Assembly: GCA_008632985.1 (NCBI GenBank)
Contig: QPGO01000078.1
Location: 186,001 to 250,000 of the forward strand
Origin: Psammoneis japonica
Lineage: Eukaryota
Length of the DNA: 64,000 bases
Direction of reading: 5' to 3'
The notes beneath the pieces were generated by a model, which was not told where the DNA came from, did not search any database, and saw only the letters and a list, made by a program, of their open reading frames with translations. Positions within the stretch are counted from its first letter, which is position 1; each line of letters opens with the position of its first letter. Shown piece by piece: positions 1,973 through 56,368 of this stretch. A program made the translations under genes and the position numbers.

Positions 1973-3162
1973 GAGGATTGCTGGTGAAGCATTGACAATT
2001 TAACAATCTGTTAATCCTGATGAAACTGCAACTGTCAAATCACTGCATTTCATTGTTTTTGTCCACTGTGTTCAAGGAAAGGCAGCCAGCAGACAACAAA
2101 GATTTGCTGCTGTCTGCAGGATGCTCAATGGACAGCAAGTCACACTCTGAGAATGTTTCTCTGCAATCAACAGTGGCTTTTGGTGAATCAATAAAGAGAA
2201 GTCCCATGAGAATTCTTGCAAGTGCAAGGCACCATTGCTGTTGTCTCCTTGCAATCATCACCCAATGATTCATCAAAGGACTGCTTGTTTTTTGTTTCCA
2301 GATGAAAGTCCTCTCTCATTGCAACAGCCTTCTTGGTGAAGACATTTGCAGTGCAGGCTGTGTTTGTGATTGACTTTCCTTTCTCATGGACAGCCGTGTC
2401 CACCTTCATCCCTTTGGAAAACAATGGAGATGTTGCCAAACACTCATTCACCATGTGTCACACAATGTCTGGAGCAAGGGGATTGTGTTCTTTCCCCAAT
2501 GTGCATTGCAGCTGGGGTGCAGCAAGCATCCCAGGCAATTGGCTTTGAGTTCTGATGTGACATGCTGAACCAACTTCAATTTTCCAATGCTTTTCTCCAA
2601 CAAGATGCCAAGCAACAACACATTTGTGTGACTGTTCCATGCAACTTGAACAATGTCCTTGTGTTGTTTCACCGCAAAGGCAACTTTGGGTGTCATGTGT
2701 TTTTCTTCCTGTCTTCTGGCTGCACCTGACTTCTGTGTTGCCAACACCACTGTGCAGCAGAAATGGTGACACATCAGCCAGTGCAATGCCCCTGTTCTTG
2801 GCTGGGTCCAGCATCTGCATTTGTTGTCAATTCTGTCCTGGTGCAAATCAAGTGTGTCATTCTTTGGGCTCCATGTCATGCTGCATTTGATGGTGGAGAA
2901 AGCATTGGCATCAACACCAAGAGGATCCAAACAACCAGGTTGCACATCAAAGTCTCCCACGAGTGTTTTCAGAACCCACCAAAACTGGTCAGTGCCTTTG
3001 AGTGCAGATTTTCTCTTGCCATCAGAAAGTTGGCTCAACACTGTTTCTGGCAATGGCTGTCCCTCCCTGTGCAACAAACAGTGAACCAGATTTGTGTGAC
3101 CTGGGAACAAGTCATCGCGACAAATGCTGAACTCTTTTTCCAATGTTGACTCCCCCCAAGGA

Positions 3163-3438
3163 TGACAGAAAATGAAGGCAAATGGCAAGAATTCAAACAA
3201 CAACTCCTTGCTGCTGTCTAAATGGCAGATGAGTCTCCGCTCAGAGACCGTCACAGGAGCCGAAGGACGTGCAAGTCGGCATAATCGGGCCACTGTTGTT
3301 ATTCTTGTGAGCCTTGTGGCTCAAAAGCAAACTACATCGCGCGCGAACGCGCGGAACTAAAGCACACAAAACTGTGCACGGTAAACTAAACAGCGCGCGA
3401 CACTTCGCGTGCATCCAAATCCTGTTCAAATCCTGTCA
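3163..3438 (-). repeat. 3' LTR (TpA-mutated copy)
   Basis: Aligns without gaps to 6331-6606 with 10 substitutions; TG...CA termini. Confidence 0.92.
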
Positions 3439-3445
3439 CTCCCCA
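3439..3445 (-). promoter_or_regulatory. Polypurine tract of the LTR element
   Basis: Plus-strand CTCCCCA reads TGGGGAG on minus, immediately before the 3' LTR. Confidence 0.65.
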
Positions 3446-3504
3446 GTTTGCTTGAGGAGTCACAGAAACAGATTCGACTTCGGATTGACTAAAGAACTTT
3501 GGAG

Positions 3505-5373
3505 TCAAAGCACCAAAACATGAGGAGACAAGAAAGGATCAAGATCCAAGAGCAACGTTGCATTCTCCAAGTGGGTCATCTTGAGATGAGCTGCGTCTCC
3601 CCAGTTGCAGATGCCGTTGTGCTTTTCAAAGCTCAAGGCACACTTGGGATCTTGTGGGATTCCACATCCGCACTTGCAATGGAAGGAGCAAAGCTTGGTC
3701 TGGTTGACAATGTTGAACGGCGGGGCAACATTGCAGGACAATGCAAACAAGTTGACATCGCCTTCACTTCCTGAGCGAAGGTCATAAAGACTGATGTCCG
3801 TCTGTTGGTTCTTGGGACAGTTGCCACACTGGGCTGCTGCTAGAAAAACAGAGCAGTGCTCGTGCAGGGTGGCATGGTGTTTGCACGACTCGGGGAACAG
3901 AGCAAGCATGAGTTCAAAGGCACAAGCAGTGGTCTTGTGTTCCACCAATCCGATTGCAAGCTCAGCTGCATCTCCTGAGAGACTGATCCAATTGGAGAAA
4001 CGAGTCTCAAGGTGCAAGCCTTCGGGGATCGGATTGGAGCAAGACATCTTGTGGTGCAAGGCTGCAGATGTCTGATTGGGGCAACCAGTCCCGTGCTGCA
4101 AGACTTCTGGGATCCAAAAGGACTTGCCAGTCTTGTGACACGAGTCTTCGGGGATCCAATCAGGAGGCCAAGTCTTGAGGTGCGAGACTTGGGGGATCCA
4201 ATCAGGAGGCCGAGTCTCGTGGTGCAAGACTTGCCGAGTCTTGAGGCATGAGATGTGGAGGATCCAATTGGGAGGCCCGGTCTTGAGGCACGAGACGTGG
4301 AGAGTCCAGTTGGGAGGCCTGGTCTCAAGGCACGAGACTTGGGGCATCCGATCAGGAGGCCCAGTCTCGATGTACGACACTTGGGGCATCCAATCAGGAG
4401 GCCCAGTCTCGAGGTGCGAGACTTGGGACATCCAATCAGGAGACCTGGTCTCGAGGTACGAGACTTGGGGCATCCAATCAGGAGGCTCAGTCTCTAGGTA
4501 CGAGACTTGAGGCATCCAATCAGGAGGCCTGGTCTCATGGTGCGATGCTTGGAGGATCCGAAGACAACAAAGCTGCTTGGATGTCCTGAACTCCCCATCT
4601 GATGAACCGGTTGAACTGTTGTGAACAGATTCAATGACGGGAAAAGGAGGCTCCCCATCAGGAGATGCAAGAAGCAAGTTGTCATCTCCATCACCTCCCA
4701 AATGAAGGCTGTGAAGGGTGACAGCGGTCGACACGTGGAGGTTGGCAGCAAGTGGTTTGCGGGGTGCAAAGGCTGTAGCTTTGGAAGCCATGGGTGGAGT
4801 GTCCCAACTGGTCTCGAAGTGCGGGTCTGTGCAAGGGCTGCAATCCTGCACTGGGCCGAGGTTGCTTGCAGGCGGGTTGGTCAAGACATGCGGGGCGCGA
4901 CTGACACCACTTCTAGGGGACACCTGAGTGGTGGCACAGTGCAAGGCTGGTGTCAAAATGGCACTGGGTTCACCTGGTTTGGATGGCAAGGGACTCGGCA
5001 CAGGTGCGGAGGGTGCTGTGCCAGTGGCTAGAGAGGTCAAGTGGTCCGGACCAAGGCGGCAGTTGCAAAATTCCTCGGGTGTGAGCAACTGGGGTTCATT
5101 GGTCACATCATCACCGTTGCAAACTTTGACAAAGTAGAAGCTGATCAAAGCTGCTAGGAGGTTTCTGTGGGTCCGTGGCAAAGGCACTACATTGGCGCCG
5201 TCTCTGCAAGTGAGGGCGTCAATTTGGGTGGGTGAAAACGTGAGCAATTCCTCGCACGATTCAATCCCGTTGATGGACAGGGCAGAACGAAGAGGGCTGT
5301 CATTGTCTTGATTGAGCACAGTGCCTAGAATGTATTTGAAGCTTTCGGTTTGTTGCTGTCGCGTGAGAACCAT
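3505..5373 (-). pseudogene. Gag-like ORF fused to 14-aa repeats and a residual pre-RT pol motif
   Basis: N-terminus MVLTRQQQTESFKYILGTVLNQDNDSPLRSALSINGI resembles CoDi gag. KCGCGIPQDPKCALSFEKHNGICNWGDA resembles the KxGYEIPxxYxxALxxDxxNGNxxWxDA segment preceding copia RT, with Y->C changes. Confidence 0.65.
3990..4540. repeat. 42-bp tandem repeat array (about 13 units, ETxPPDWxPQVSxL on minus)
   Basis: Recurrent GAGACTTGGGGCATCCAATCAGGAGGCC units; divergence increases toward lower coordinates. Confidence 0.9.
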
Positions 5374-6313
5374 GACGGAGGACGGTGCAGCAGAAACAAA
5401 AGACAAGATCCAATCTAGAGCGCGATCTTGACTCGGAGTTTTGACTTGGAACTTGGCTTGAAAAAGACTTGACTTGAGCTAGACTTGACTTGAAATCTTG
5501 GACCATCTTAAAATCAGAAGTGGCCGGGTTGTGCTGTCCCGTTCGTTGTTGAGTGCTAAACTTCCCATCCGGTCCGTAGAGTTGTGCCGGCACGTCCGAA
5601 CCCGCAGCTGGTGGCGCTTTGGGTTGCTTGCGAGCGGAGCAGCGGGTTGTAAACCCCTGCAGGTGAGCTGACCAGAGGTGGACAAGACCCCCGAACCGTT
5701 CTCATTTTATGTCGGTTGGATTTCCCGATCAGGCTGGCCAGTTGACGCAGGCGTTGGGCGCTGTGGACGAACGAACAAACGCGGGAAAAACACCCTCGCC
5801 CCAATGCAGGCTGTGGTCACGGCTGCTTGCTCTCACAGTCGTCCTCGTGGACCTAGTAGAACTGTAGAGCACCAGTAGTCCGGGGTAGATCAGGTGCAAT
5901 GGACTCGGTGTGCTTGTAGAGTGGCAGCAAAACCGCAATCCGAAGAGTGGGTACAAGTTCTTGGCCGTGAAGATATGTATATATATATATGTCTTCAGCG
6001 ACGAAGGTCCTTGAATATGTAGGGTTCTTGACCGTTAACCGATGAATGGGTATATCAAGGGATGAGGATCAAGGATAGACTTGGATATGACCGTTGAATG
6101 TATGTCTTCAGCGATCAAAGGTAGTATAATCAATCCAGATATCCAGCGGTAAGGAGACTTGACGGTGACGTTAACTTCCTGCCGATGCCCTGGTATTGAA
6201 TGCGCGTAGACTTGCCGATGTATGTAGGATATATACAGAGGTCCACGTAGAATTGAAATAGCGTCGTTGGTAAATCAACGACGACGATGGCGGTTGCTCA
6301 ATGGGTTGACAAT

Positions 6314-6330
6314 GAGCAAGACTGTTAATC
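6314..6330 (-). promoter_or_regulatory. Putative primer-binding site complementary to a tRNA-Asn(GTT) anticodon arm
   Basis: Directly abuts the 5' LTR; plus strand GCAAGACTGTTAATC has the CT-GTT-AA anticodon-loop pattern. Confidence 0.5.
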
Positions 6331-6606
6331 TGACAGAAAATGAAGGCAAATGGCAAGAATTCAAACAATAACTCCTTACTGCTGTCTAAATAGCAGATGA
6401 GTCTCCGCTCAGAGACCGTTACAGGAGCCGAAGGACGTGTAAGTCGGTATAATCGGGCTACTGTTATTATTCTTGTGAGCCTTGTGGCTCGAAAGCAAAC
6501 TACATCGCGCGCGAACGCGCGGAACTAAAGCACACAAAACTGTGCACGGTAAACTAAACAGCGCGCGATACTTCGCGTGCATCCAAATCCTGTTCAAATC
6601 CTGTCA
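6331..6606 (-). repeat. 5' LTR (TpA-retaining copy)
   Basis: Direct repeat of 3163-3438 that retains 9 TA dinucleotides lost in the other LTR. Confidence 0.92.
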
Positions 6607-9340
6607 AGGAGTGTGGTGGCAAATCTGCATGAGACTCTGCCAGTGCTGCCAAATTTGTTTTAATCAGTGGCTTGCCCATCACTTGACACCAGTTTGCCAA
6701 TGTTGCAGAATCAATTTCCGAGGCTTTCCACACTTTGTCAGATGGCCACACACACTTGAGTTCTTTGTGTGTTTGTTCAAGGTGGCACTCCAACAGAGCA
6801 GTGTCCACAGCCAAACTTGGCAACAACAGTTTGCTTGTGCCTTCTGTTGTTTGTTCATTTCCCTTGTGGCGCTTCAAAGGACATTGTTGGCATGGGACGG
6901 AGGAGGAGAACGGTTTGACATTGATGTTGAAGGTCAGGCTGTGTGATGATTTAGGTGGAGATGCCAATTTGGGCTTGCACAGCTCTTTCTGTCTGTTTGA
7001 TGGAATTTTGTTGTTCATTTTGGGAGAAGTGAATTGCATTGTGTGTTTCACAATGTGCACCAATGAGGTGTTGTGAGCAACCTTGTTCTGGAGATTGACA
7101 ATTTGGTGTTTTGTGATTTTAGTCACAACACAACATTTCAATTTGGAGCTTGCTGTGGCAATTCATTCATTGTGGAAAGACATTGATCCTCGGCAATGTT
7201 GCAACTCTCTCTTCAATCTTCATGAGCAAGGAACAATCTGTGGCATCATCATTGTTGATTCAATGTCTCAGAACATTCCAAATGGAATGTTTGCGATGGC
7301 CACATGGTTCAACACCATGCAGAAAGGCCAGCACAAACACCACAAACACAATGTCAACAGCAACAAATGGAGCACAGACCAGCTCATGAGTGACTCAGAA
7401 TTGCCGCAGCTCATTCAATGACTTTGCCACCCTCAAATAGACAGGGAACAAATTCTTGTAGAGGAACGCAATGTCTTTGATGATCTGCTGCAAAGGGGTG
7501 TTGCTCAGATGCAGTGTCCATCAGGGAGAGTCACACCTCTGCCCAGTGCTCCATTTGCTCATGCGGATGCAACCAGCATTTCCCTGGAGACCATGTCTTC
7601 ATAAGAACTGAATTGGGCATGTGCTCATGTGCAAAGCAACTCCAGCAGACAGGGCCATGGTTGTGGATCAGGCATCTCCAAGCTGAGTGCACTTTGGGAC
7701 ATGCAATGGTTGCAGCACCTGGAGGCATCCATTGAACATCAGGTCACTTGCTCAAGCAGAGGTGGACTCCAGTGTGAACATCACATGGGATCTTAACTGC
7801 AACCATCCAAAGGTTGTTTTGTTCTTGCTGGCAATCTTTGCACACAGACATCTGGACAGTGACCTGAGATGCAAAGGAAGGCGGGCAACGGGGAAGGGCA
7901 CAAAGGCAAGCTGAAGCAATGCATGAGACAAAATTGTAAGAAAAACAAGACATGTGTAAAAACTGATCATTGGCACAAAGCTTTGTCCAGTTGCAGGCAA
8001 CATTTTGGCTGACTAAACAGAAGGAATGTGTGTGATCATTGGAGGATGATGTTGTTGCCTGGTGCAGACTGTTGTGGAGAGAGTGAGAGTGGTGGCAAGG
8101 GAGAACACAGGGATCAAAACATCAAACCCTTTGGGTCAATTGTGGTGCACATTTGTTGTGCATTGGAGAATGCAGACCACCATGCAGAGCAGCAACCCTC
8201 TCATTTTTGAAAACACTTGTCGGCATCACAACATCATGACAAGCTTGTGCAGTGATTTCGTCACTTCCTTTTGAGCCTCTGCATTGCTTTTTGTTTCATT
8301 GCATTTGCTTTTTTTTGAAGAAAGGTCTGCACTCTTCATTGCACAAAGATTCAAAGTGCAAAAAGAGCTGCCCTCTGCAATTGCCAACTTGCTTGGTCAG
8401 AAAATCCAGATGGAAGCTCATGTGCATGCACATGATTTTTGTGCACATTCCTGAGCAGCTGCACACTGTAGACAGGGCATCTTGAGCAAATGTTGGGAAA
8501 GAAGGGTGGAATGAGGTCAGCAAGCAACCACCATTTTGCCAGCTGCAATGCTGGTGTGGCAATCTTGCAAAACTTTGCTTGTGTGGCTGTGGCCCTCCCC
8601 ACTGGCTGCTGGCTTGGTTGACAAGAGCAACCCAAAATTGTGCTGGAAGACATGTTAAAAGCACTTCAATGCCATGCAAGCTCAGGCAGGTGCAGTGATG
8701 GAGTTCATCAGAGAGAATGTCCACAGTTTGAAGGAGAGGGAGTGAGGTGCTGCAAGCTGCTCACCAGTCTTGTGTGTTTGATGGACGCCATTCTTTCCTC
8801 TGGAATGTGTCTTGCAATCTGGCCACTTGCTCGACTCAGGCATTCTTCGCCAGCACGAAGAAGAAAACAAGCAACCTCTGAATTGGACAGCTCAGATGGG
8901 ATCTCACATGTGCAGGCAGTGGTGGGAGTGAACTTTGGGAGGATCATGACACTTTGGTTCACAGGCACGATGTCGACTCTAGAAAGTCTTCCCAGCAGCA
9001 TTGCGCAGAAGCAGAGTTGACCGTGACACACAACAAACGTCAGGAGCATTTGGCGAAAGATCAAGGAGTCTCATCAGATGCATCAGCAGAACACAAGACA
9101 TTTTCAACCACCAGAAGGCAGAATTAGATCGCCATGGTTCGCCCCAGATTGAAAGAAAGTTTGAAGGAAGCAAAAAGATTGGCCCTTCGCAGCACTCACG
9201 CCATTGCCAGCTGTTTCCGTTGGGCATCTCTGTCTGGTGGAGGTGCCACAACTGGCCAATCGCACTGTCTTCTGTCACACACCTGGCGGGGTGTGCTGGA
9301 AGTGTGGATTAGCCGGCCCCGGGGTTGCAGGGCAAAGGCG
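6607..9340. other. Heavily decayed TA/CG-depleted repeat-like block, family not assignable
   Basis: Very few TA or CG dinucleotides, Cys/His-rich broken ORFs; continuous with 1973-3162 across the LTR insertion. Confidence 0.5.
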
Positions 9341-11938: not shown

Positions 11939-12550
11939 TTATTTTCGCATACCCCAGTCAAAGTTCTTTGGAGCTGACATCCACTTTGGCTTCAGTTCTA
12001 ATATTTTTTCAAAGACGGGACAAGACTTTGCGTGAGCGCCGGGTAAATATCCCAGGCTCATTAAAAACTCTGTTGTGATTTCACCACCCGTAAATTTGAA
12101 TGTCTTTTTAAAGAGTGCTACCCAATCATCTTTCGAAAGAGGGTGATTGGCATCAAGCCATGCTTCAAAGGAACCGTGGCTCTTTTGGAGTTCCAAGATT
12201 CGATTTGCATTGAAGATTGCTGCATTGATTTTTAATTTGTTCCTAATGACTCCAGGATCTTGACGAAGGCGCTCGATATCTTCTTGCTCATAGGCTGCAA
12301 CGAGACTTATGTCAAAGTCATTGTACGCCTCACGAAACGATTCCTGCTTCTTCAAAATTGTCAACCAACTCAAACCAGCCTGGTTGATTTCCAGCACGAG
12401 TCGCTCAAACAAGGCATTGTCGTCTCCACGAATAGGGAAGCCGTAGTGCTTGTCATGGTATGGACCGTGCCATTCATGTCCGTCTGCAGCTTCGCAATAA
12501 GAATTGGGTGGAAGTTTTGGTTTGCTTTCTTTCGTCTTGGCGGCGGACAT
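11939..12550 (-). CDS. tag: DNA-3-methyladenine glycosylase I
   Basis: Motifs YHDKHYGFP, LFERLVLEINQAGLSWLTILKK, IRNKLKINAAI and C-terminal H..CP. An upstream in-frame ATG exists at 12634. Confidence 0.93.
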   Translation of the reverse strand: MSAAKTKESKPKLPPNSYCEAADGHEWHGPYHDKHYGFPIRGDDNALFERLVLEINQAGLSWLTILKKQESFREAYNDFDISLVAAYEQEDIERLRQDPGVIRNKLKINAAIFNANRILELQKSHGSFEAWLDANHPLSKDDWVALFKKTFKFTGGEITTEFLMSLGYLPGAHAKSCPVFEKILELKPKWMSAPKNFDWGMRK

Positions 12551-13118
12551 AATGACGGTTGCAAAATCAACGTATGAACCTGCTGATGTGATTGCTCGGG
12601 AAAGAGATGAAAATGCCAATGGATAAGCTCTCATGAGATGCTTACGATGCGGCTTCGTAGTTCTGGTACATCAATCGCATCCTCAATGTCATAGCGGATT
12701 CAGGATGTTGTTCCAACAAGTTCCCTGTCGCCCGTCGTCGGTCGTCGGTCGTCGCTCTTGGATTTTTGATCTTTGTGCCTCTACCGTACTACTCCCCGAT
12801 CCAGATCTTCCGCGCGCGCGAAAGTAGCGTGCAGTGCGTCGCCTACCTGTCAGGATTTTGCGGGGGGGGGGCGCTGTTTTTACTTAAGGCCCCCCCACGA
12901 AATTCAACCTCATTTAAGCACCTGTGACATCCCCCCCCCTCATACAAAAAATCCGTAGAAGTGACAGTCGTCGTCGCGCGCCATCTTTTTGGCCTTTTTC
13001 TGGAACGCCTTTCATAACAACGACCCTCATCGTTGTTGCAAGTGCGCACTTCATACTTCATCGATGCCTTTCCTTTTCAACAAGGGTTTGTCAAGAGCCC
13101 CTTTGTATTCTCATTGCC

Positions 13119-16100
13119 ATGCCTGCACTTGAAACAATGGGGCCGAAAAGCCAGTCAAGTCCTTCGCGTCTGAAGAAGTTGAAGCAAAATGCATCGAGGC
13201 CGACGCCCCACCCCTTGAACAAGAGCACGAAAGAGGGTGAAGCGGAGCGACGTAGAAAGCAAAAGGAAATTGACGAAGCTAATGAATTCAAATGGAGGTG
13301 CGATCAACACAAGAAAAGCAAGAAGATTCGTGAAAAAGTCACAACTCGGGTTGACTTCGGAACGAAAACGTGCAAACGGTGTGTCACAGGGCCGGGTCAC
13401 AAGAAGGGTCACGACGACATGTGCCACAAGAATCCAAATACTTCAAATTACAAGCCACCAGAGAAAATTGTCATTCAAGTTCTGAAAGAGGTGGAGCCAG
13501 ATTTCCTCATGGCACTGCCACAAGATTGCAGAAACAATCTCATCGCGAGGAGCCTTTTGGAAAGATCTTTTTTCTCTTCGCCGGAGGGAAGTGCAGAAAG
13601 TGTACAAGAAGCATTTTTCGATGTGTCTGAGTCCTTGGTAGATTCTAATCCACCCAGTGACAACAACAATTCAGTTGGGGATGCTCTCAGCAGCGTTGAA
13701 TCCAAGGATGTGTTGAAGCCGTTGCTGTGCAAGAAAATGACTGCGTCGCATCTAAAAAAAGCGACACCCGCCGTGATGTCGACGTGGAGCACAAGTGAGA
13801 AAGAGCAACTCGCTCAAGACAACACAAAAGTGCCGCTTCCAATTTTGGCATTGCTGGAATTCATTCACATGCAACGCCCAAGAGTTTGCACCGATTCCAA
13901 TGGCGCCAAGAAGCTTGGTGGAGGTGAACAACGTATTTCTTGGTGCCGCGACCACTTTCCGCGTGGAAATGTTGCGTTCACGGTGCCGTTGGCGGGTGGG
14001 AAAGAAAATGAAGTTCCCGACCCAATGTGTGAGTCCATTCAAGGCTCAACAACATGTTTGACTCGGTGGGAACTGAACATGCCAGACTTGCCATTGAAGT
14101 GTTTTTCATGTGGCGACGGATTTCTGGAGCACACGAGGGTAGAGTGCGGCAGCACCAGGTTTGCAAGCAGTGCGACGCCCGTTTTCAGAATGAAAGGTCA
14201 CACGGGTTGGGAGCATGGCATCACATGCAAGTGCTCTAATTGTGGAGAGCTTGTCAAGTCGTGTGATGGTAGACTGCCACGTTGTTCTCTACAAGACTGT
14301 GCACGTCGAAGCTTCCCAGTAGATCCCTTGCATTGCTCGAAGCCATCCTTCTTCTTGCTTCACGAAGAGGTGTCCTTTCTGCTGGAGGAGGCTGCTCTAA
14401 CAGAATCAAGTGCACAGTGGGTGTCACGAACGCTCTTCCGAAGTCAAAACCATCGGCACGAAGAACTGGAACTGTCACATTGCAGCTCTGACAAGAGTTG
14501 TGAGGACAAACCTTTTCCAGACTTTCCATCAATTGAAGAGTGGCGAGGACAGTGTCCGCCATCAAGTGCTCAGTTGCCAGATCTTTGCGAAGCAGCCAAC
14601 TCCTCCGATCTCACAGCGTGTGGCGTGAGCGACGACGACCGTCACAAGAGAGAAATGCAGTCATGCGGCTGCGAAACTTCTACAGCCTTCGATCACACCC
14701 ACGCAATGTTGAGCAACTGCCCATCATCACTGGGCGCTCAAGCTTGTGCCACTCAGTCAACTGATGCGGGATTCATTGCCTGGCTTGGACTTGTCGACTC
14801 TACCGCAATGTCAGACAGTGCCCACGGCATCGAGCAAACTGCAAGATGGCCAAACTTTAACCCGAAGCATGTGCACACGGATGCATGGCCCAATCTTGAT
14901 CCATTCTTCAAGACAACACACGGATTTGCAACAATCGGTCGACTTGGCTCATTCCATGCAATTCAGCGCGTCACCAAGTTCATGCGGAAAGATCACAAGG
15001 ATTTCAACAAAGCTCTCCGCTCTTTCTTGAGCTGCCTGTACAGTCTGAACCAAGAGGATGAAGCAGCCGCAGTGGCAACACTACGAGACGGGACAATGAA
15101 TGGCCGCATCCACCAGCCTGATGAGATCTCGGATTTGCAGCACAGCAAGAAGTGGATGGACCGCTGTGGGCAGCACATCCGAAAGATTCCTGTTCCAGGA
15201 GAGCTCGCGAGGATTAAGTTGAGGGACTGGTGGTGCCCATGCAAAGTGAGCAACAGTGATGGTGAGCCAGCAGGACAAGGAGAGCTGGACAATGGGAAAA
15301 CCCTGTTCATGGAAGGAGCAAGACAAGCAGTGAGAGCGTTGACGGAAAAAGCTCAGCATCTGCCAGAGATTGTTGGCGACTGCCACAAGAAACTCACCGC
15401 ATCTGCCCGATCGAAACACAAACTACCGCGATGCATTTCTGAAAAGGGTGAGTCTTCATTGGAGAAGTTTCACCATCTGTCAGCTCATTTTGGAAACATG
15501 GGCATGCGGCGAACGCTCGCCGACAGTTTGAACCTCCGTGGCATGTGTCGACACAATCTCAAGCTGTGGCACAAACTATTCGGAAGAAATGCACCCGAGA
15601 TCCCAAGCCATTTTCAAACTGAACCCATTCATTACAACCATCTCAAGTTGCTAGAGATCAACCGGAGGTCCGCCAAGCATGGATCCAAAGCACCGCGGCA
15701 TGAGAATCTACGAGATTGCCCAGAGTGCAGGGGCGAAGAGTTTTTGTCCGAGTGCCTTTTGTCGCAAAGAAAGAGACGAGCACAATGTCCACCCCATCCA
15801 ACCAACAGTCGCTGCCAATGCCCCAAATGTGCTGCAAATCCGATGCCTCTTCCTCACATCCAACGAGCCATTTCACGTGAGCAGTCGGCGGCATCTGCAG
15901 TGGCGCCAAATGAAACGGCACCTGTGAACAATGACACTGGTGACTTTGACACTGCTGAGTTTGGTGTCGACTTTGATGAGCAAGAGCATCATTCTGTGTT
16001 TGAAGACACTCCTCCTCAAGAGCAACTTCCCCAAGAAACACGAATGATCCGCGACTTTGCCGCACAGGACGCCTTCCAAAGGCATCAAGAATTGAATTCC

Positions 16101-16439
16101 GCGCCGCCTGCCCCAATCCTCCCCATGCCGGCACCAGCTCTGCCATTGCTGCCTCTGCTGCCTGTTCCTGTAACAAATTCACCAATGTCATTGCAGCAAC
16201 CTTTGGGCCCACCTGCTGTTGCGTCGTCGATGCCACATTCAACCTGCTGCCAACCCGTTTCTCTTGGGACAGCGAGTTTTGCAGCATCTGCTCCTGTGCT
16301 GCCATCCGCTGTCACTCCAGCTACAAAGAGACGAAAGGTCAAAGAAGAAGAATGCTGCTGTGAGGGAAGAAAAAATCATGTCGAAAATGGTCGTCGGGGG
16401 CGGGTCGCTCACACCTTGTGGTGCAACCGAGGAAAGTAA
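13119..16439 (+). pseudogene. Transposase copy 1, open but hypermutated
   Basis: FDHT, VHTDAWP, RLGxFHAIQR and KGESSLEKFH motifs plus CxxC pairs; only 3 Tyr in the 1171-aa ORF (manual count). Confidence 0.75.
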
Positions 16440-17713
16440 GGCGTTCTTGGTGTCTTTTTGTTTTGTTCTTTTTTCCATTTGTGTTGGCACACATCACATT
16501 GCCACTTCCCAGTGCAGATGCATTAATTCAGGATTAGGATCCAACACAGTGGCAACAAACATTTTACACTTGTGTGGTTGCACCGGTCCACCACACCAAC
16601 CATCACCATGCCGCACCGACCAACATTGACGGCATGGACAGCACGGACACCGAGGTCCCATAAAGCCGGTAGCCTGTCGCAGCCCCACAGCAGAAACAAA
16701 GGAGTGGAAACAACAAAATTGAGAACACGACAACAAAGAAACAGACCCATGACACTCGACACATTTCTGTCACCTTACATCAATGCTTTTGGAGTGCCCT
16801 CGTGGTGCTTGTGGTTGATTGCATCAAGCAACACTGTCGGCCGAAAACAAAACAAAACACTGTCCAATTGAAAGGAATGGAAACAACAGAAATGTAGAAG
16901 GTGCCATCAAAGAAACAACCCCATCACACTCGACACATTCACATCACCTTGTCTTAATGATTTCGGTGCGTCCTCACAGTCCTTGTGGTTCATTGTTAGC
17001 AGCAATCTTGTCGGCGGCAGAAAACAAAACTCAAAACACACGCTCCATTTAAACACAATGGAGACAAAAGAAATTTAGGAGACACCAACAAAAAAATACA
17101 ACCATCATGCTCAACACAGTCTTTGTGCCTTGTGTCAATGCTGTTGACCCTCGCATCGTCACAGTGATGGTCGATTCATGAACGGAGCTAGTCGCCATTG
17201 TGCTGCGACGGTTCGAGGGTGGTGCGGCAAGTGCGCGTGAGGATTTTTCCCACTGCATGCAGTGTCTTTTCTGTCTGTCCATTAGCGAGTGGTCTTGAAC
17301 GTTGCTGAGTCATAAATGGCTTGAAGACAAAATCATTCTTAAATGTTGCATCGTCATAATTGGGGATTGCTGAGTCACAATTCACTGAAGGCATGATGTG
17401 ATTGGCTGAAAATGCAGCGCACAAGAATGGGACAATGGTGCGCGATTTTGCGGGGGGGGGGGGGGCACTGTTTTTACTCAAGGCCCCCCCATGAAATTCA
17501 ACCTCATTTAAGCACCTGTGACATCCCCCCCCCTCATACAAAAAATCCGTAGAAGTGACAGTCGTCGTCGCGCGCCCATCTTTTTGGCCTTTTTCTGGAA
17601 CGCTTTTCACAACAACGACCCTCATCGTTGTTGCAAGTGCGCACTTCACACTTCATCGACACCTTTCCTTTTCAACAAGGGTTTGTCAAGAGCCCCTTTG
17701 CATTCTCATTGCC

Positions 17714-20700
17714 ATGCCTGCACTTGAAACAATGGGGCCAAAAAGCCAGTCAAGTCCTTCGCGTCTGAAGAAGTTGAAGCAAAATGCATCGAGGCCGACG
17801 CCCCACCCCTTGAACAAGTGCACGAAAGAGGGTGAAGCGGAGCGACGTAGAAAGCAAAAGGAAATTGACGAAGCTGACAAATTCAAATGGAGGTGCGATC
17901 AACACAAGAAAAGCAAGAAGATTCGTGAAAAAGTCACAACTCGGGTTGACTTCGGAACGAAAACGTGCAAACGGTGTGTCACAGGGCCGGGTTGCAAGAA
18001 GGGTCACGACGACACGTGCCACAAGAATCCAAACACTTCAAATTACAAGCCACCAGAGAAAATTGTCATTCAAGTTCTGAAAGAGGTAGAGCCAGATTTC
18101 CTCATGGCACTGCCACAAGATTGCAGAAACAATCTCATCACGAGGAGCCTTTTGGAAAGATCTTTTTTCTCTTCGCCGGAGGGAAGTGCAGAAAGTGTGC
18201 AAGAAGCATTTTTCGATGCATCTGAGTCCTCAGTAGATTCTAATCCACCCAGTGACAACAACAATTCAGTTGGGGATGCTCTCAGCAGCGTTGAATCCAA
18301 GGATGCATTGAAGCCGTTGCTGCACAAGAAAATGACTGCGTCGCATCTAAAAAAAGCGACACCCGCCGTGATGTCGACGTGGAGCACAAGCAAGAAAGAG
18401 CAACTCGCTCAAGACAACATAAAAGTGCCGCTTCCAATTTTGGCATTGCTGGAATTCATTCACATGCAATGCCCAAGAGTTTGCACCGATTCCAATGGCG
18501 CCAAGAAGCTTGGTGGAGGTGAACAACGTATTTCTTGGTGCCGCGACCACTTTCCGCGTGGAAATGTTGCGTTCACGGCACCGTTGGCAGGTGGGAAAGA
18601 AAATGAAGTTCCCGACCCAATGTGTGAGTCCATTCAAGGCTCAACAACATATTTGACTCGGTGGGAACTGAACATGCCAGACTTGCCATTGAAGTGTTTT
18701 TCATGCAGCGACGGATTTCTGGAGCACACGAGGGTGGAGTGCGGCGGCACCAGGTTTGCAAGCAGTGCGACGCCCGTTTTCAGAATGAAAGGTCACACGG
18801 GTTGGGAGCATGGCATCACATGCAAGTGCTCTAATTGTGGAGAGCTTGTCAAGTCGTGTGATGGTAGACTGCTGCGTCATTCTCTACAAGACTGCGCATG
18901 TCGAAGCTTCCCAGTAGATCCCTTGTATTGCTCGAAGCCATCCTTCTTCTTGCTTCACGAAGAGGTGTCCTTTCTGCTGGAGGAGGCTGCTCTGACAGAA
19001 TCAAGTGCACAGTGGGTGTCACGAACGCTCTTCCGAAGTCAAAACCATCGGCACGAAGAACTGGAACTGTCACATTGCAGCTCTGACAAGAGTTGCGAGG
19101 ACAAACCTTTTCCAGACTTTCCATCAATTGAAGAGTGGCGAGGACAGTGTCCGCCATCAAGTGCTCAGTTGCCAGATCTTTGCGAAGCAGCCAACTCCTC
19201 CGATCTTACCACGTGTGGCGTGAGCGACGACGACCGTCACAAGAGAGAAATGCAGTCACACGGCTGCGAAACTTCTACAGCCTTCGATCACACCCACGCA
19301 ATGTTGAGCAACTACCCATCATCACTGGGCGCTCAAGCTTGTGCCACTCAGTCAACTGATGCGGGATTCATTACCTGGCTTGGACTTGTCGACTCCACCG
19401 CAATGTCAGACAGTGCCCACGGCATCGAGCAAACTGCAAGACGGCCAAACTTTAACCCGAAGCATGTGCACACGGATGCATGGCCCAATCTTGATCCATT
19501 CTTCAAGACAACACACGGATTTGCAACAATCGGTCGACTTGGCTTGTTCCATGCAATTCAGCGCGTCACCAAGTTCATGCGGAAAGATCACAAGGATTTC
19601 AACAAAGCTCTCCGCTCTTTCTTGAGCTGCCTGTACAGTCTGAACCAAGAGGATGAAGCAGCCGCAGTGGCAACACTACGAGACGGGACAATGAATGGCC
19701 GCATCCACCAGCCTGATGAGATCTCGGATTTGCAGCACAGCAAGAAGTGGATGGACCGCTGTGGGCAGCACATCCGAAAGATTCCTGTTCCAGGAGAGCT
19801 CGCGAGGATTAAGTTGAGGGACTGGTGGTGCCCATGCAAAGTGAGCAACAGTGATGGTGAGCCAGCAGGACAAGGAGAGCTGGACAATGGAAAAACCCTG
19901 TTCATGGAAGGAGCGAGACAAGCAGTGAGAGCGTTGACGGAAAAAGCTCAGCATCTGCCAGAGATTGTTGGTGACTGCTGCAAGAAACTCACCGCATCTG
20001 CCCGATCGAAACACAAACTACCGCGATGCATTTCTGAAAAGGGTGAGTCTTCATTGGAGAAGTTTCACCATCTGCTGGCTCATTTTGGAAACATGGGCAT
20101 GCGGCGAACGCTCGCCGACAGTTTGAACCTCCGCGGCACGTGTCGACACAATCTCAAGCTGTGGCACAAACTGTTCGGAAGAAATGCACCCGAGATCCCA
20201 AGCCATTTTCAAACTGAACCCATTCATTACAACCATCTCAAGTTGCTAGAGATCAACCGGAGGTCCGCCAAGCATGGATCCAAAGCACCGCGGCATGAGA
20301 ATCTACGAGATTGCCTGGAGTGCAGGGGCGAAGAGTTTTTGTTCGAGTGCCTTTTGTCGCAAAGAAAGAGACGAGCACAATGTCCACCCCATCCAACCAA
20401 CAGTCGCTGCCAATGCCCCAAATGTGCTGCAAATCCGATGCCTCTTCCTCACATCCAACGAGCCATTTCACGTGAGCAGTCGGCGGCATCTGCAGTGGCG
20501 CCAAATGAAACGGCACCTGTGAACAATGACACTGGTGACTTTGACGCTGCGTCATTCTCTGCAAGACTGCGCACGTCGAAGCTTCCCAGTGGATCCCTTG
20601 CATTGCTCGAAGCCATCCTTCTTCTTGCTTCACGAAGAGGTGTCCTTTCTGCTGGAGGAGGCCACTCTAACAGAATCAAGTGCACAGTGGGTGTCACGAA

Positions 20701-22796
20701 TGCTCTTCCGAAGTCAAAACCATCGGCACGAAGAACTGGAACTGTCATGTTACAGCTCTGACAAGAGTTGCGAGGACAAACCTTTTCCAGACTTTCCATC
20801 AATTGAAGAGTGGCGAGGACAGTGTCCGCCATCAAGTGCTCAGTTGCCAGATCTTTGCGAAGCAGCCAACTCCTCCGATCTTGCCGCGTGTGGTGTGAGC
20901 AATGACGACCGTCACAAGAGAGAAATGCAGTCATGTGGCTGCGAAACTTCTACAGCCTTCGATCGTGCCCACGCAATGTTGAGCAACTGCCCATCATCAC
21001 TGGGCGCTCAAGCTTGTGCCACTCAGTCAACTGATGCGGGATTCATTGCCTGGCTTGGACTTGTCGACTCTACCGCAATGTCAGACAGTGCCCACGGCAT
21101 CGAGCAAACTGCAAGACGGCCAAACTTTAACCCGAAGCATGTGCACACGGATGCATGGCCCAATCTTGATGCATTCTTCAAGACAACACACGGATTTGCA
21201 ATGATCGGTCAACTTGGCTCATTCCATGCAATTCAGCGCGTCACCAAGTTCATGCGGAAAGATCACAAGGATTTCAACAAAGCTCTCCGCTCTTTCTTGA
21301 GCTGCCTGTACAGTCTGAACCAAGAGGATGAAGCAGCCGCAGTGGCAACACTGCGAGACGGGACAATGAATGGCCGCATCCACCAGCCTGATGAGATCTC
21401 GGATTTGCAGCACAGCAAGAAGTGGATGGACCGCTGTGGGCAGTGCATCCGAAAGATTCCTGTTCCAGGAGAGCTCGCGAGGATTAAGTTGAGGGACTGG
21501 TGGTGCCCATGCAAAGTGAGCAACAGTGATGGTGAGCCAGCAGGACAAGGAGAGCTGGACAATGGAAAAACCCTGTTCATGGAAGGAGCGAGACAAGCAG
21601 TGAGAGCGTTGACGGAAAAAGCTCAGTGTCTGCCAGAGATTGTTGGCGACTGCTGCAAGAAACTCGCCGCATCTGCCCGATCGAAACACAAACTGCCGCG
21701 ACACATTTCTGAAAAGGGCGAGTCTTCATTGGAGAAGTTTCGCCATCTGCCAGCTCTTTTTGGAAACATGGGCATGCGGCGAACGCTCGCCGACAGTTTG
21801 AACCTCCGCGGCACGTGTCGTCACAATCTCAAGCTGTGGCACAAACCATTCGGAAGAAATGCACCCGAGATCCCAAGCCATTTTCAAACTGAACCCATTC
21901 ATTGCAACCATCTCAAGTTGCCAGAGATCAACCGGAGGTCCGCCAAGCATGGATCCAAAGCACCGCGGCATGAGAATCTACGAGATTGCCCGGAGTGCAG
22001 GGGCGAAGAGTTTTTGTCCGAGTGCCTTTTGTCACAAAGAAAGAGACGAGCACAACATCCACCCCATCCAACCAACAGTTGCTGCCAATGCCCCAAATGT
22101 GCTGCAAATCCGATGCCTCTTCCTCACATCCAACGAGCCATTTCACGTGAGCAGTCGGCGGCATCTGCAGTGGCGCCAAATGAAACGGCACCTGTGAACA
22201 ATGACACTGGTGACTTTGACGCTGCTGAGTTTGGTGTCGACTTTGATGAGCAAGAGTGTCATTCTGTGTTTGAAGACACTCCTCCTCAAGAGCAACTTCC
22301 CCAAGAAACACGAATGATCCGCGACTTCGCCGTGCAGGACGCCTTCCAAAGGCATCAAGAATTGAACTCCGCACCGCCTGCCCCAATCCTCCCCATGCCG
22401 GCACCAGCTCCACCATTGCTGCCTCTGCTGCCTGTTCCTGCAACAAATTTGCCAATGTCATTGCAGCAACCTTTGGGCCCACCTGCTGTTGCATCGTCGA
22501 TGCCATGTTCAACCTGCTGCCAACCCGTTTCTCTTGGGACAGCGAGTTTTGCAGCATCTGCTCCTGTGCTGCCATCCGCTGTCACTCCAGCTGCAAAGAG
22601 ACGAAAGGTCAAAGAAGAAGAATGCTGCTGTGAGGGAAGAAAAAATCATGTCGAAAATGGTCGTCGGGGGCGGGTCGCTCATGCCTTGTGGTGCAACCGA
22701 GGAAAGCAAGGCGTTCTTGGTGTCTTTTTGTTTTGTTCTTTTTTCCATTTGTGTTGGCACACATCACATTGCTGCTTCCCAGCGCAGATGCATTAA
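17714..22796 (+). pseudogene. Transposase copy 2, frameshifted by internal duplication, stop codon lost
   Basis: ORFs 17555..20761 and 20526..22796. The TAA of copy 1 (16437) is CAA at 22707, giving read-through. Confidence 0.75.
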
Positions 22797-24205
22797 TTCA
22801 GGATTAGGATCCAACACAGTGGCAACAAACATTTTGCACTTGTATGATTACACCGGTCCACCACACCAACCATTGCCGTGCCGCACCGACCAACATTAAC
22901 GGCACGGACAGCACGGACACCGAGGTCCCACAAAGCCGGCAGCCTGTCGCAGCCCCACAGCAGAAACAAAGGAATAGAAACAACAAAATTGAGAACACGA
23001 CAACAAAGAAACAGACCCATGACACTCGACACATTTCTATTGCCTTATATCAATGCTTTTGGAGTGCCCTCGTGGTGCTTGTGGTTGATTGCATTAAGCA
23101 ACACTGTCGGCCGAAAACAAAACAAAACACTGTCCAATTAAAAGGAATGGAAACAACAGAAATGTAGAAGGTGCCATCAAAGAAACAACCCCATCATACT
23201 CGATATATTCATATTACCTTGTCTTAATGATTTCGGTGCGTCCTCACAGTCCTTATGGTTCATTGTTAGCAGCAATCTTGTCGGCGGCAGAAAACAAAAC
23301 TCAAAACACACGCTCCATTTAAACACAATGGAAACAAAAGAAATTTAGGAGACACCAACAAAAAAATACAACCATCATACTCAACACAGTCTTTATACCT
23401 TATATCAATGCTGTTAACCCTCGTATCGTCACAGTGATGGTCGATTCATGAACGGAGCTAGTCGCCATTGTGCTGCGACGGTTCGAGGGTGGTACGGTAA
23501 GTGCGCGTGAGGATTTTTCCTACTGCATGCAGTGTCTTTTCTGTCTGTCCGTTAGCGAGTGGTCTTAAACGTTGCTGAGTCATAAATGGCTTGAAGACAA
23601 AATCATTCTTAAATGTTGCATCGTCATAATTGGGGATTGCTGAGTCATAATTCACTGAAGGCATGATGTGATTGGCTGAAAATACAGCGTACAAGAATGG
23701 GACAACGGTACGCTTCCAAGTTCTCCCTGCGAGCCTGTAGGGTCAAATTATGACCTAAGAGTTCTCGATATGCCAATCGACGTTAATTAATTACTTTTTA
23801 TAGCACTGCACAATTAGGTAGATCTTTAGGAACAATGTCTCATGCTTATGACTTATAGGCCATTAATAAATATGCAATGTTATGTTGTGGAGATCTCACA
23901 ACTAACAACACATTATAAATGTTAATTTTTATTTAAAGGTAAATTGAAAACCCCCATAAACATCGAAACTAACGAAGCTGCCATTCTTCGATTTCGGACA
24001 TTTTTCAATTCATCAAAAATGCGAACCCCTGCAAAAAGACAAATGCAAAACACGAAATACTGTGTACTGTGTACCGTACTAAAATTGGCAAACGATAAGA
24101 TCGATCATCAAGATAAGAGTGACACCAAGCCGAAGGACAAAAAATAGATTCAGGAATACCTATTCATCACGCACTCTCCACACCGCACGACCGTGGAACA
24201 AAGGA

Positions 24206-26071
24206 ATGATGATCTTGTTTAGGTGCTGCACATTGGTGTTCGTCGTGACATCCTTCACTTCTTCCACAGCACAAAGAGCGACGAAGCCTAATTTCATCCT
24301 CATCATGACGGATGATCAAGGTATAGATGATTATGGCTTTCGCCAGCCGCCGCTGGAGACACCAAACTTGGACAAGCTAATGAAAGATGGGGTACAATTC
24401 ACCCGATTCTACACGGGAACCGCATGCGCTCCCACCCGGTCTCAGCTAATGACAGGAAGGCACTTTCTGCGCACGAAAACAGTTGGAGTAGGCTTCGGGA
24501 GAGATGCACCACATCTAAATGAGTACATGCTTGGAGAGGCCCTTCAGGATGCCGGATATGTTACTGGCATGGTTGGCAAGTGGAATCTCGGCACCTCAGA
24601 CGCTGAATTACCGCATCGACGAGGCTTCAACGAAACATGGGAGCTGACAGATGAAAGAACACGTAAAAACGGCAAGTATGAACACTTCAATGCCCCTTTT
24701 GCTCACAACGGTAAACCTCGTGGCATTGAGCCAGGCTGGCAGGTTGAGCGCGTCACAGACAAAGCTCTCCGTTTCATAAGCCGCAACAAGGAAGAACCTT
24801 TCTTTCTTTACATCCCTTACGCACAGCCACATGAGCCGTGGCTATGCCGAAAGGAACTCCAAGAAAAATACATTGAAAAAGGCATCGGAGAATCGTATGC
24901 TATGCTCCTTGGTATGCTGGAGCACATCGACATCCAAGTTGGGCGAATTCTTGATGCACTGGAGCGGCATCATCTCGCCAAAAATACCATAGTAATTTAT
25001 TTTGGAGACAACGGTCCCACTCCAAAAACAAGGCTCCTTGCTCAGGACTCAGATGGTAACTTCAGGCAAACTGGCGAACAGTATGAAATGAACGACACAG
25101 AATGGGCGGCACGCAATCCGACTGGTTTGCGATCTCAGAAGGCAACCGGTTGGGAAAACGCTGTTCGCAACCGGCTCTCCTTCTACTGTCCAGCTAGACT
25201 TAACACCAAAGTCGTCCAAGACATGATCATTGTATATGATATTTTTCCAACGTTGCTCCAATTAGCCGGGCATTACCACAGTTACAAGAAAAAAACTGGT
25301 GTGCCACGCTTGGATGGCCGAAGTTTTCAGCGCTTGCTTTTTCAAGACAACCCCGGCTGGCCGCAAGAACGTGAGTACCTTGTTGCAAAGCTCGGAATGC
25401 CTGCTAATCATCTGGCTCCAGATGGTTGGTACTACCGCTTTACTAAGGAGTATTCTCTTCGATTAGAGAGGTCGGAATGCGCACTTGTTTCAGGTCACTG
25501 GGTGGTCGTCAACGAAGAAGGCACATGGAGTTTGTACGACCTTTCGAGTGATCCCAGCCAGGAGAACGACCTCAAAACGGCCCTTCCTGAAAAGTTTCTT
25601 CAAATGGAAAATAGATTTTATTCTGTGCTATACGATGTAAACAACGACACGCATTCGTGGTCAAACCCAATCCAAGTAATTGGCCTTCCAGGCATTGAAC
25701 ACCCATACTTGGAGATGTTTTATGCATATCGCTTCAAGGGTAGGAGCAGAGTTTCATGGTCTTATACGTTCTTTGAAGATGTCGGGGCCACTCAGGATCT
25801 GAGAGTTCATGCACTCGAGTCTGGTACATACGATGTGATGCTTCGCACCCGGCCTGCTCCTGCACGAACCCTTGTGCAGTTTCATGTCGGGAAACAAAAA
25901 AAGATTTCCCTCCTCAACTGGGACGGTCGGATGCATAACCTTGGAAAGTTTGACTTTGAAAAGGGGAATTACAACATTGGAATGACCATTGTTGAGTCGG
26001 GAAACCTCGAACAACTTCAAAGTATGCCCGTTTACAATATCCTCTTGAAGAAAGTGAGCGGAGACACGTGA
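24206..26071 (+). CDS. Secreted formylglycine-dependent (S1) sulfatase
   Basis: Signal peptide, PNFILIMTDDQG, CAPTRSQLMTGR (CxPxR), GKWNLG, GDNG; no intron needed. Confidence 0.93.
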   Translation: MMILFRCCTLVFVVTSFTSSTAQRATKPNFILIMTDDQGIDDYGFRQPPLETPNLDKLMKDGVQFTRFYTGTACAPTRSQLMTGRHFLRTKTVGVGFGRDAPHLNEYMLGEALQDAGYVTGMVGKWNLGTSDAELPHRRGFNETWELTDERTRKNGKYEHFNAPFAHNGKPRGIEPGWQVERVTDKALRFISRNKEEPFFLYIPYAQPHEPWLCRKELQEKYIEKGIGESYAMLLGMLEHIDIQVGRILDALERHHLAKNTIVIYFGDNGPTPKTRLLAQDSDGNFRQTGEQYEMNDTEWAARNPTGLRSQKATGWENAVRNRLSFYCPARLNTKVVQDMIIVYDIFPTLLQLAGHYHSYKKKTGVPRLDGRSFQRLLFQDNPGWPQEREYLVAKLGMPANHLAPDGWYYRFTKEYSLRLERSECALVSGHWVVVNEEGTWSLYDLSSDPSQENDLKTALPEKFLQMENRFYSVLYDVNNDTHSWSNPIQVIGLPGIEHPYLEMFYAYRFKGRSRVSWSYTFFEDVGATQDLRVHALESGTYDVMLRTRPAPARTLVQFHVGKQKKISLLNWDGRMHNLGKFDFEKGNYNIGMTIVESGNLEQLQSMPVYNILLKKVSGDT

Positions 26072-35150: not shown

Positions 35151-35154
35151 TTGA

Positions 35155-35620
35155 CCCTTCAACCACCACTGCTTGAGGATGTGTGATGTGTCATGCAATT
35201 TTACAACAACACAATGAACACGGTGTGAAAATGTCATGTCGCGCAGAATCTACGTAAAGCATGCCAAGTGCATTTGCTCATTGGGAGCAAATCTCCACCG
35301 GCGGAGATTTGCTCCAAGGGTGTGGCATCATTGGTCTATTTGCGATGGCAATTCATGACAACCTGCATTGTCAAAGGTTGAGATTTAGTTCCTCTCTGTT
35401 CACAGATGCAGCTTGCAAAAAACCCAGTGTTAAAAGTCGACATTGAACTTTCTAAATCACAAAATGGGTTCCCTGAGATTTTTGGCGAGTGCGTGCTCCA
35501 AAACAAAATCGCGCAAATTTGACATTGTCCATGTCTGAGATTACTTCATTTGCTGTGTTTGTGACGTAAGGGAGCAAATCTCCACCCGTGGAGATTTGCT
35601 CAAGTCCGGTGGTTGAAGGG
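35155..35620. mobile_element. piggyBac-like non-autonomous element (MITE), 466 bp
   Basis: Perfect 13-bp TIR CCCTTCAACCACC...GGTGGTTGAAGGG with TTGA on both flanks (inferred mutated TTAA); two internal GAGCAAATCTCC hairpins. Confidence 0.8.
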
Positions 35621-47264: not shown

Positions 47265-47399
47265 TTCGTTGTCTTTTTGTTACGAGTGCACTGCTGTCAA
47301 GGTTTCTTTTTTCACAATGCGATGGCTTGGTCACACATAAAACGCGCAACACAAAAAAAGCGAACCACCATCAATCATCCAAAAAAAAAAATCAAAAAA

Positions 47400-56327: not shown

Positions 56328-56368
<41 letters not shown>

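Follow-up and report, generated by a model that had tools for sequence, protein, structure and literature searches.

TpA-directed A:T to G:C changes in repeat copies of a 64-kb eukaryote-like window and the strand choice of neighbouring changes

The stretch of DNA analysed here (the window, 64,000 nt) is eukaryote-like in its contents, which include BTB, LRR, and fasciclin domains, a Tex/Spt6-like gene in three frames, a reverse transcriptase, and a Mutator-like open reading frame (ORF). It contains a tandemly duplicated, transposon-like unit of 4.6 kb. In the 3' flank of the inner copy of this unit (16921-17160), TpA dinucleotides that are intact in the paralogous stretch of the outer copy (23191-23430) are replaced by CA (16927-16945) or by TG (16984-17145). 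The initial annotation noticed that these replacements come in same-strand runs and ascribed them to a processive mutator or one acting on single-stranded DNA. The comparison of all repeat copies of the window described below concerns the chemistry, the direction, and the placement of these changes, as well as the strand on which successive changes fall.

Repeat copies inside and outside TpA-depleted domains

Self-comparison of the window with the use of BLAST gave five repeat pairs in all, and a search with the sequence collapsed to purines and pyrimidines revealed no more diverged pairs in the window past these five. The inner copy of the 4.6-kb unit, c1, occupies positions 12862-17443 (+). 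It is followed by c2a (17456-20550, +; 97.5% identity), which corresponds to the first 3.1 kb of the unit (unit positions 12862-15955), and by c2b (20555-23713, +), which corresponds to its last 3.2 kb (unit positions 14285-17443); the middle 1.7 kb of the unit is present in three copies. Two shorter pairs are d1/d2 (48309-48970 and 49214-49877) and e1/e2 (3163-3438 and 6331-6606). An open frame of 1173 aa (12918-16439) lies in the unit. It has no Pfam match and one distant homologue (P0001, 29% identity), and a protein-language-model search placed it near DUF6729/Mutator-like clusters (score 0.94), which we treat as a lead only. The search for copies of the unit in metagenomes gave 0 loci with an exact 27-base anchor beside the first flagged cluster, and 0 confirmed loci in a protein-based scan with the homologue P0001.

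The three runs that had drawn attention to the region are present in the alignments as described. Between 16921-16950 of c1 and 23191-23220 of c2b, five consecutive sites (16927, 16934, 16936, 16942, and 16945) read CA in c1 and TA in c2b. Between 17121-17148 and 23391-23418, five consecutive sites (17124, 17126, 17131, 17133, and 17145) read TG in c1 and TA in c2b, and with 16984 and 17108 counted as well, this run comprises seven sites. In the third case, six consecutive sites of d1 (48482-48533) read TG where d2 (49390-49441) reads TA.

The copies that bear CA or TG lie in DNA that is poor in TpA as a whole. A two-state model on TpA density divides the window into six depleted domains, which together take up 41,707 of the 64,000 bases (65%), and intervening DNA with ordinary genes. 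In the former, rho TpA is 0.06-0.14 and that of CpA/TpG 1.37-1.99, compared to rho TpA of 0.48-1.04 in the latter. The domains are located at 1-5853 (rho TA 0.11, CG 0.38), 6570-9309 (rho TA 0.07, CG 0.21), 13107-22793, which holds the tandem repeat (rho TA 0.14, CG 0.75), 32999-49014, with the Mutator-like ORF, a retroelement, and LRR ORFs (rho TA 0.10), 53872-58637 (rho TA 0.06, CG 0.24), and 59564-62208 (rho TA 0.11, CG 0.40). Their recognisable contents comprise the reverse transcriptase, the Mutator-like ORF, the DUF6729/Mutator-like ORF, and the LRR ORFs. As the LRR ORFs (43845-45018, -) also reside in depleted DNA (rho TA about 0.13), the targeting is regional and extends beyond recognisable mobile-element genes.

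The edges of these domains cut through repeat copies. In c2b past position 23,055, none of the 34 informative sites is converted, compared to 23 of 34 in the paralogous end of c1, which places the right edge of the mutated domain inside c2b, between about 22,940 and 23,055. The same division into an inside and an outside copy is seen in both shorter pairs: 18 of 24 informative TpA sites are converted in d1 only, within the domain, and TpA is retained in d2 directly beyond it; 9 of 16 are converted in e1, and TpA is retained in e2, most of which lies in a small island of normal DNA. Targeting follows chromosomal position, not homology. The left edge of the tandem array (12862-13106 vs. 17456-17700) presents a mirror image of the right one. 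The first ~250 bp of c1 is outside the depleted domain, and in the first 500 bp of the c1/c2a pair, five sites are converted in c2a alone and none in c1 alone, so the outer ends of the array are spared on both sides. The island that contains most of e2 (5854-6569, 716 bp) has normal or even high TpA (rho 1.04) and is located between two deeply depleted domains.

Spectrum, direction, and flanking bases of the changes

The five repeat pairs differ at 294 positions, of which 281 are transitions, nine are transversions, and four are indels. Pyrimidine-purine (YpR) steps hold 268 of the 281 transitions, and the aligned dinucleotides swap among TA, CA, TG, and CG, with no case of TA facing CG in any of the five pairs. 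The variable YpR sites (165) fall into two classes. At 122 of them only TA, CA, and TG occur. The second, smaller class of 43 sites, in which CG is involved, is ordinary CpG decay: in the three-copy stretch, nine CpG changes are polarisable, with only c1 or only c2a deviating, and all of them are from C to T.

Both strands are used nearly equally in the conversion of TpA (85 TG and 74 CA among 159 events), and there is no overall strand bias. The ratio of TG to CA is also even in the three codon phases of the long frame (20:17, 17:14, and 10:10) and outside of it (21:19), so selection by codon phase as a source of strand choice is ruled out; strand choice is independent of gene orientation as well. 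The conversion being blind to codon phase, the long frame of the unit is not under protein-level selection.

The direction of change proposed in the initial annotation, from TA to CA and from TA to TG, is supported by several independent arguments. In each of the three informative pairs, CA or TG is found in the member that lies within a depleted domain, and TA in the member directly beyond it. Unrelated sequences in the same domains are depleted of TpA too, and the TA copies have TpA at the level of neighbouring genes (rho 0.5-0.7). At 35 sites, one copy bears CA and another TG, and at two sites all three states, TA, CA, and TG, are found across the three copies. A model in which only C changes to T needs two changes on an ancestral CpG for each discordant site; with 147 conserved CG and 17 single changes, it predicts about 0.25 such sites for c1/c2a, where 17 are seen. 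A precedent for the direction that we infer is provided by mutation-accumulation lines of Bigelowiella natans, for which the main text of a preprint gives 230 of the 231 de novo changes of two hypermutable regions as A to G or T to C, with every GC-biased change on TpA and yielding TpG or CpA (Mettrop et al., bioRxiv 10.64898/2026.01.13.699255). Single lines of that experiment had as many as 45 mutations in 186 kb. Within the depleted domain at 1-5853, an array of tandem 42-bp units (4101-4559) has one position that reads GGTACG, GGCACG, or GGTGCG, i.e., the TA, CA, and TG alternatives.

Susceptibility of a TpA site depends on the bases that flank it. Three segments with a partner that preserves the ancestral sequence provide 75 TpA sites, and the fraction converted is 20/21 for RTAY (R, purine; Y, pyrimidine), 16/19 for YTAY, 8/16 for RTAR, and 8/19 for YTAR (RTAY vs. 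YTAR, Fisher P 3.5e-4). In a competing-risk fit, the relative rates are 0.28, 1.00, 0.28, and 1.12 with A, C, G, and T, respectively, as the base 3' of the changed A. The model with the 3' neighbour is better than the null (likelihood-ratio statistic 19.35, 3 df, P 2.3e-4), and a pyrimidine in this position is favoured about 4:1, giving the motif 5'-TAY-3'; no significant effect was found for the base 5' of the T or for positions -4, -3, -2, +2, and +3. Where the rule can decide between the two adenines of a site, strand choice obeys it: TG and CA are in the ratio of 11:5 at YTAY and of 1:7 at RTAR (P 0.027). An independent check, from which the test segments were left out, is offered by the TA dinucleotides that survive: 237 of them in depleted domains, compared to 826 in normal DNA, are RTAY in 11% vs. 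29% and YTAR in 37% vs. 22% of cases (chi-square 40, P 1e-8).

The opposite direction would be expected if C to T changes at CpA, of the kind produced by repeat-induced point mutation (RIP) of fungi, had occurred in the copies at the domain edges, so that the copies with TA are the mutated ones and the family is natively poor in TpA. Such an account is suggested by the transitions at CpA/TpG steps, by the lower G+C content of the TA-bearing end of c2b (0.40 vs. 0.48-0.50), and by three sites of the three-copy region at which TA occurs in c2a alone and which parsimony reads as a gain of TA. We nevertheless consider it very improbable. C to T changes by themselves cannot give rise to the 35 discordant sites, unless CpG changed at a rate much higher than observed, and the flanks of these sites (R..Y 16, Y..Y 13, R..R 4, and Y..R 2) match those of hot TpA sites, in contrast to those of CpG sites (P 3e-4 for the difference). 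The TA-bearing copies have TpA at only a normal level (rho 0.5-1.0), with no excess; a native lack of TpA would have to be assumed for all the unrelated elements that cover 65% of the window; and the TAs surviving in depleted DNA bear the flank signature expected of survivors. RIP proper resembles the process seen here in being a transition hypermutation that degrades transposons, leaves a dinucleotide signature, and is found by comparing repeat copies. However, RIP makes TpA from CpA, whereas in the window TpA is destroyed, and RIP depends on homology and acts on both copies, whereas here one of two homologous copies is left untouched by virtue of its position. For these reasons, RIP was rejected.

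CpG is strongly depleted too (rho CG 0.02-0.4) at 1-3000, 6570-9309, 53872-58637, and 59564-62208, and only mildly (0.68-0.75) in the domains 13107-22793 and 32999-49014. The depletion of CpG, together with the nine of nine C to T changes, suggests cytosine methylation of the same domains. Pyrimidine..purine flanks are avoided at the variable CG/CA/TG sites of all pairs as well, where they are found in 3 of 42, compared to about one fourth of CpG sites in normal DNA.

Strand of successive changes

For the analysis of runs, converted sites were coded as g (TG, the A of the + strand changed) or c (CA, the A of the - strand changed). In the individual copies, neighbouring sites are of like strand in 33/69, 20/35, 23/37, 8/19, and 4/8 cases (P 0.18-0.88). 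As discordant sites appear in mirrored form in two copies, each of the 122 sites was then counted once, which gave 56-64 like-strand neighbours among 117, with 58-62 expected (P 0.35-0.66, according to the copy that takes precedence), i.e., a same-strand fraction of 0.48-0.55. The longest run, of seven sites, is within chance (P 0.3-0.5). Runs of at least five number 6-8, compared to 3.1-4.4 expected (P 0.018-0.065), and are balanced by a surplus of strict alternations. Pairs of sites 51-100 and 101-200 bp apart show no same-strand excess. The mutated and unmutated states are not patchy along c1 and c2a either, with 28/57 and 26/57 like neighbours and about 28 expected. A coupling between neighbours would have been detected with a power of 98% at a strength of 0.3 and of 76% at 0.2.

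The initial annotation had generalised from the runs to a processive or strand-coordinated mutator, and as a general property of the changes this was not borne out: the runs tests are negative, the two strands are used evenly, and a coupling of at least 0.3 would have been seen with 98% power. An enzyme moving over single-stranded tracts of hundreds of bases, exposed in replication, transcription, or repair-patch synthesis and leaving kataegis-like clusters, could account for three runs of 5-7 sites, which in c1 span up to about 160-195 bp. Given that a run of seven is expected by chance, and that pairs from 21 bp apart upwards show no excess, such an enzyme is extremely improbable. Long processive tracts are excluded by these results, with which a local window of up to 20 nt is compatible.

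The flanking bases account for strand choice only in part. The preference for a 3' pyrimidine is real, and some of the second and third runs can be ascribed to it, but not the first one, in which four of the five sites are symmetric RTAY and the fifth is predicted to change on the opposite strand, and a borderline excess of same-strand pairs at distances of up to 20 bp remains.

This excess amounts to 42 of 59 pairs, with 29.5 expected (nominal P 0.004). The clusters defined by density (gaps of up to 12 bp, at least three sites) read gcc, ccccc, gggggc, ggggg, and cccg, and 15 of 18 neighbour pairs in them share the strand. Among the cleanest 56 events, tested against a null that takes the flanks into account, like-strand neighbours are again at chance (28/53, P 0.32), whereas runs of at least five number four, with 1.42 expected (P 0.029), and 37 of 49 pairs within 20 bp are concordant, with 24.6 expected (P 0.0026, which is nominal, uncorrected, and post hoc). 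A distance-decay statistic under the same kind of null, corrected for the scan over length scales, reaches z 2.3 at 10 bp, with a global P of 0.046-0.051. At 21-50 bp there is a deficit (21/59 same-strand pairs vs. 29.5 expected), which arises from the same few clusters that lie behind the short-range excess.

A short-range excess would be expected from local patch editing, in which up to 20 nt of one strand are exposed per event and several TpAs are converted together, the exposure being due to a breathing TA-rich bubble, a transcription bubble, or an RNA-guided R-loop; clusters would appear only where TpAs are dense. The strand concordance of the dense clusters and of the pairs within 20 bp, its absence at 21-50 bp, and its persistence under the flank-aware null all agree with this possibility. 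The flank rule alone cannot yield cooperativity between neighbours, since every change is a transition and leaves the purine or pyrimidine class of the flank as it was. On the other hand, the signal comes from four clusters, and the hypothesis itself had been drawn from three of these. Once the three flagged stretches are set aside, the strand is shared by only 11 of 26 pairs up to 20 bp apart, and the scanned statistic falls below zero (z from -2.0, at 5 bp, to -0.5). Moreover, the nearest neighbours are of the same strand in only 5 of 9 cases at 1-3 bp and in 11 of 22 at 4-10 bp, and the corrected P is only about 0.05. We therefore consider local patch editing unlikely. As the excess disappears without the flagged stretches, it is carried entirely by the stretches that prompted the hypothesis. 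The data do not establish that the runs exceed chance, the local statistic being borderline and unreplicated. For the most part, the runs are such as some 120-170 coin-like events would yield, with a possible exception of coupling in TA-dense clusters of up to 20 bp.

Probable mechanism, related systems, and significance

The flagged differences are, with good probability, footprints of an in-place, domain-restricted, TpA-specific A:T to G:C hypermutation of DNA, such as that reported for integrated viral DNA in B. natans. A site-specific, deaminase-like mutator, as considered in the initial annotation, agrees with the published mutation-accumulation result and offers the best explanation of the data. 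The mutator would act by deamination of adenine to inosine on DNA, presumably by a TadA/ADAT-like enzyme. As TpA is self-complementary, either of its adenines is open to change, that of the + strand giving TG and that of the - strand giving CA, and since the product is no longer TpA, each site is changed once. The changes fall on both strands about equally and favour an A followed by a pyrimidine about fourfold. Their placement follows chromosomal position, in blocks of transposon-like DNA with sharp edges, TA being left in paralogues just beyond them, and the choice of strand at adjacent sites is essentially independent. The hypermutation may serve in defence. The equal use of the two adenines and the independence of neighbours fit an enzyme that samples a single TpA in duplex DNA or in very short openings, not one that acts on long exposed single strands. 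No deaminase gene was seen in the 64-kb window.

Several points weigh against this reading. While the spectrum, the TpA depletion, the domain edges, the flank rule, and the run statistics are observations on the window itself, carrying the mechanism of the preprint over to it is an assumption, and the direction of change is inferred rather than directly observed. A homogeneous TpA model predicts only about 1.8 discordant c1/c2a sites, far fewer than those seen, so that heterogeneity among sites is needed, of which the flank rule supplies only a part. The corrected P of about 0.05 is borderline and compatible with true local coupling, as are the concordance within 20 bp and the surplus of longer runs among the cleanest events. 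At 70-95% saturation, separate events overwrite one another, and sparse events with multiple hits are invisible. Finally, genes of B. natans are rich in introns, at odds with the many long intron-free genes of the window.

A specific form of patch editing may be considered in which a natural counterpart of adenine base editors acts on a displaced strand of up to 20 nt per event, e.g., in an R-loop formed by a small guide RNA against transposon DNA. We regard it as a long shot. If true, it would explain the one-strand, TA-dense clusters, the independence of distant sites, and the targeting of domains rather than of homologous copies.

Among known systems, clustered mutation by AID/APOBEC enzymes, as in kataegis and in the hypermutation of retroviral cDNA, which is the model behind the idea of a strand-coordinated mutator, shares with the process in the window a deaminase-type, motif-specific production of transitions directed against foreign DNA. 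AID/APOBEC clusters consist of C to T changes at TpC or WRC in single-stranded DNA and are completely strand-coordinated over hundreds to thousands of bases. The changes in the window, in contrast, are A to G at TpA, with the strands used equally and no coordination beyond about 20 bp. Kataegis-like, strand-coordinated clusters were rejected on the basis of the same-strand neighbour counts and the lack of patchiness. ADAR enzymes also change A to G, with a preference for a 5' U and often in same-strand clusters. Their preferred 3' neighbour is G, unlike the pyrimidine found here. As the tandem copies diverged in place and domain edges cut paralogues, the change was made on DNA, whereas ADAR acts on RNA.

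The flanking-base rule resembles the substrate of TadA/ADAT tRNA adenosine deaminases, from which the adenine base editors are derived. The native TadA substrate is given as U33(-1) A34(0) C35(+1) G36(+2) (PMC10586758), and the footprint in the window is T(-1) A(0) Y(+1), with the T at -1 absolute. It differs in that T and C serve equally well at +1 and that the +2 position is without effect. An A to G change on one strand cannot be distinguished by sequence from T to C on the other, and the flank rule may equally be read as 5'-RTA-3' with the T changed. The same footprint could accordingly be left by another chemistry, in which the T of TpA is modified, e.g., hydroxylated to a base like 5-hydroxymethyluracil, and then misread or repaired to C, with no deamination of adenine. 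No evidence for such a modification was obtained in our analysis, whereas the resemblance to the TadA-type substrate and the ADAT2-like candidate enzyme named in the main text of the B. natans preprint (bioRxiv 10.64898/2026.01.13.699255) speak for adenine as the target. We find a modified T distinctly unlikely.

The hypermutation described in that preprint, TpA to TpG/CpA in integrated giant-virus and virophage DNA, is the closest counterpart of the process in the window. As far as its main text goes, the two are alike in consisting almost exclusively of A to G and T to C changes at TpA, in being regional and not dependent on repeats, in the depletion of TpA with a gain of CpA and TpG, and in the enrichment in transposon, reverse-transcriptase, and unannotated sequences. 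They differ in that the evidence from B. natans is de novo and that from the window is historical, based on the comparison of paralogues, and in that the targets in the window are transposon-like. The depletion is also deeper here (rho 0.06-0.14 vs. 0.45 for the giant-virus region of B. natans), and the affected DNA makes up 65% of the window, compared to 124 clusters in the whole genome of B. natans. The main text of the preprint does not mention processivity, flanks, trinucleotides, sequence context, or CpG, and the word "strand" occurs in it twice, neither time with regard to coordination. A full-text literature search for TpA-directed hypermutation revealed no report besides this preprint. 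Taken together, the window appears to be a further case of the kind of TpA hypermutation described in 2026, far deeper and more pervasive.

Several other features of the window deserve a comment. The repeat domain is flanked by genes with normal TpA, one encoding DNA-3-methyladenine glycosylase I (11939-12670, -) and the other, free of introns, encoding a sulfatase (24083-26071, +), whose best relatives are metagenomic proteins of up to 56% identity. A retroelement of about 6 kb (35500-41500, - sense), with an RVT_1 match at 37177-38037 (-), has an extreme and sharply bounded strand composition: G makes up 0.435 and C 0.147 of its + strand, the third codon positions of the reverse-transcriptase frame are C in 0.60 and G in 0.08 of cases, and 13 TpA are found in 4.6 kb. 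Editing of one strand, as a reading of its 2:1 ratio of TG to CA, was rejected: with base composition allowed for, symmetric conversion leaves ordinary dinucleotide ratios, and conversion of one strand would not. Scans of the window with Rfam and for tRNA genes gave no matches.

In the depleted domains, e.g., at 33000-49000, many frames of 200-800 aa overlap on both strands and have no family matches; examples are 37506-39956 (-), 37498-38205 (+), and 35455-37173 (-). As DNA free of TpA is devoid of the stop codons TAA and TAG, long spurious frames arise in it on both strands, and these overlapping frames are likely artefacts that mislead gene callers. Annotators should thus be warned of such frames in TpA-free DNA.

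As a probable form of genome defence, TpA-directed A to G hypermutation of DNA has only recently been reported, and strand coordination is the simplest clue in sequence as to whether its enzyme acts on long single-stranded tracts or on single TpA steps in duplex DNA or very short openings. Paralogues inside and outside a target domain constitute a natural experiment in this regard, which argues against long tracts and bounds the coupling from above. What our analysis adds is the TAY rule, the targeting based on position, the single change per site, and the upper bound on strand coupling. The TAY rule would narrow the search for the enzyme toward TadA/ADAT-like deaminases. If the window does not come from Bigelowiella, TpA hypermutation would be more widespread, and in this DNA far more pervasive, than the single report suggests.

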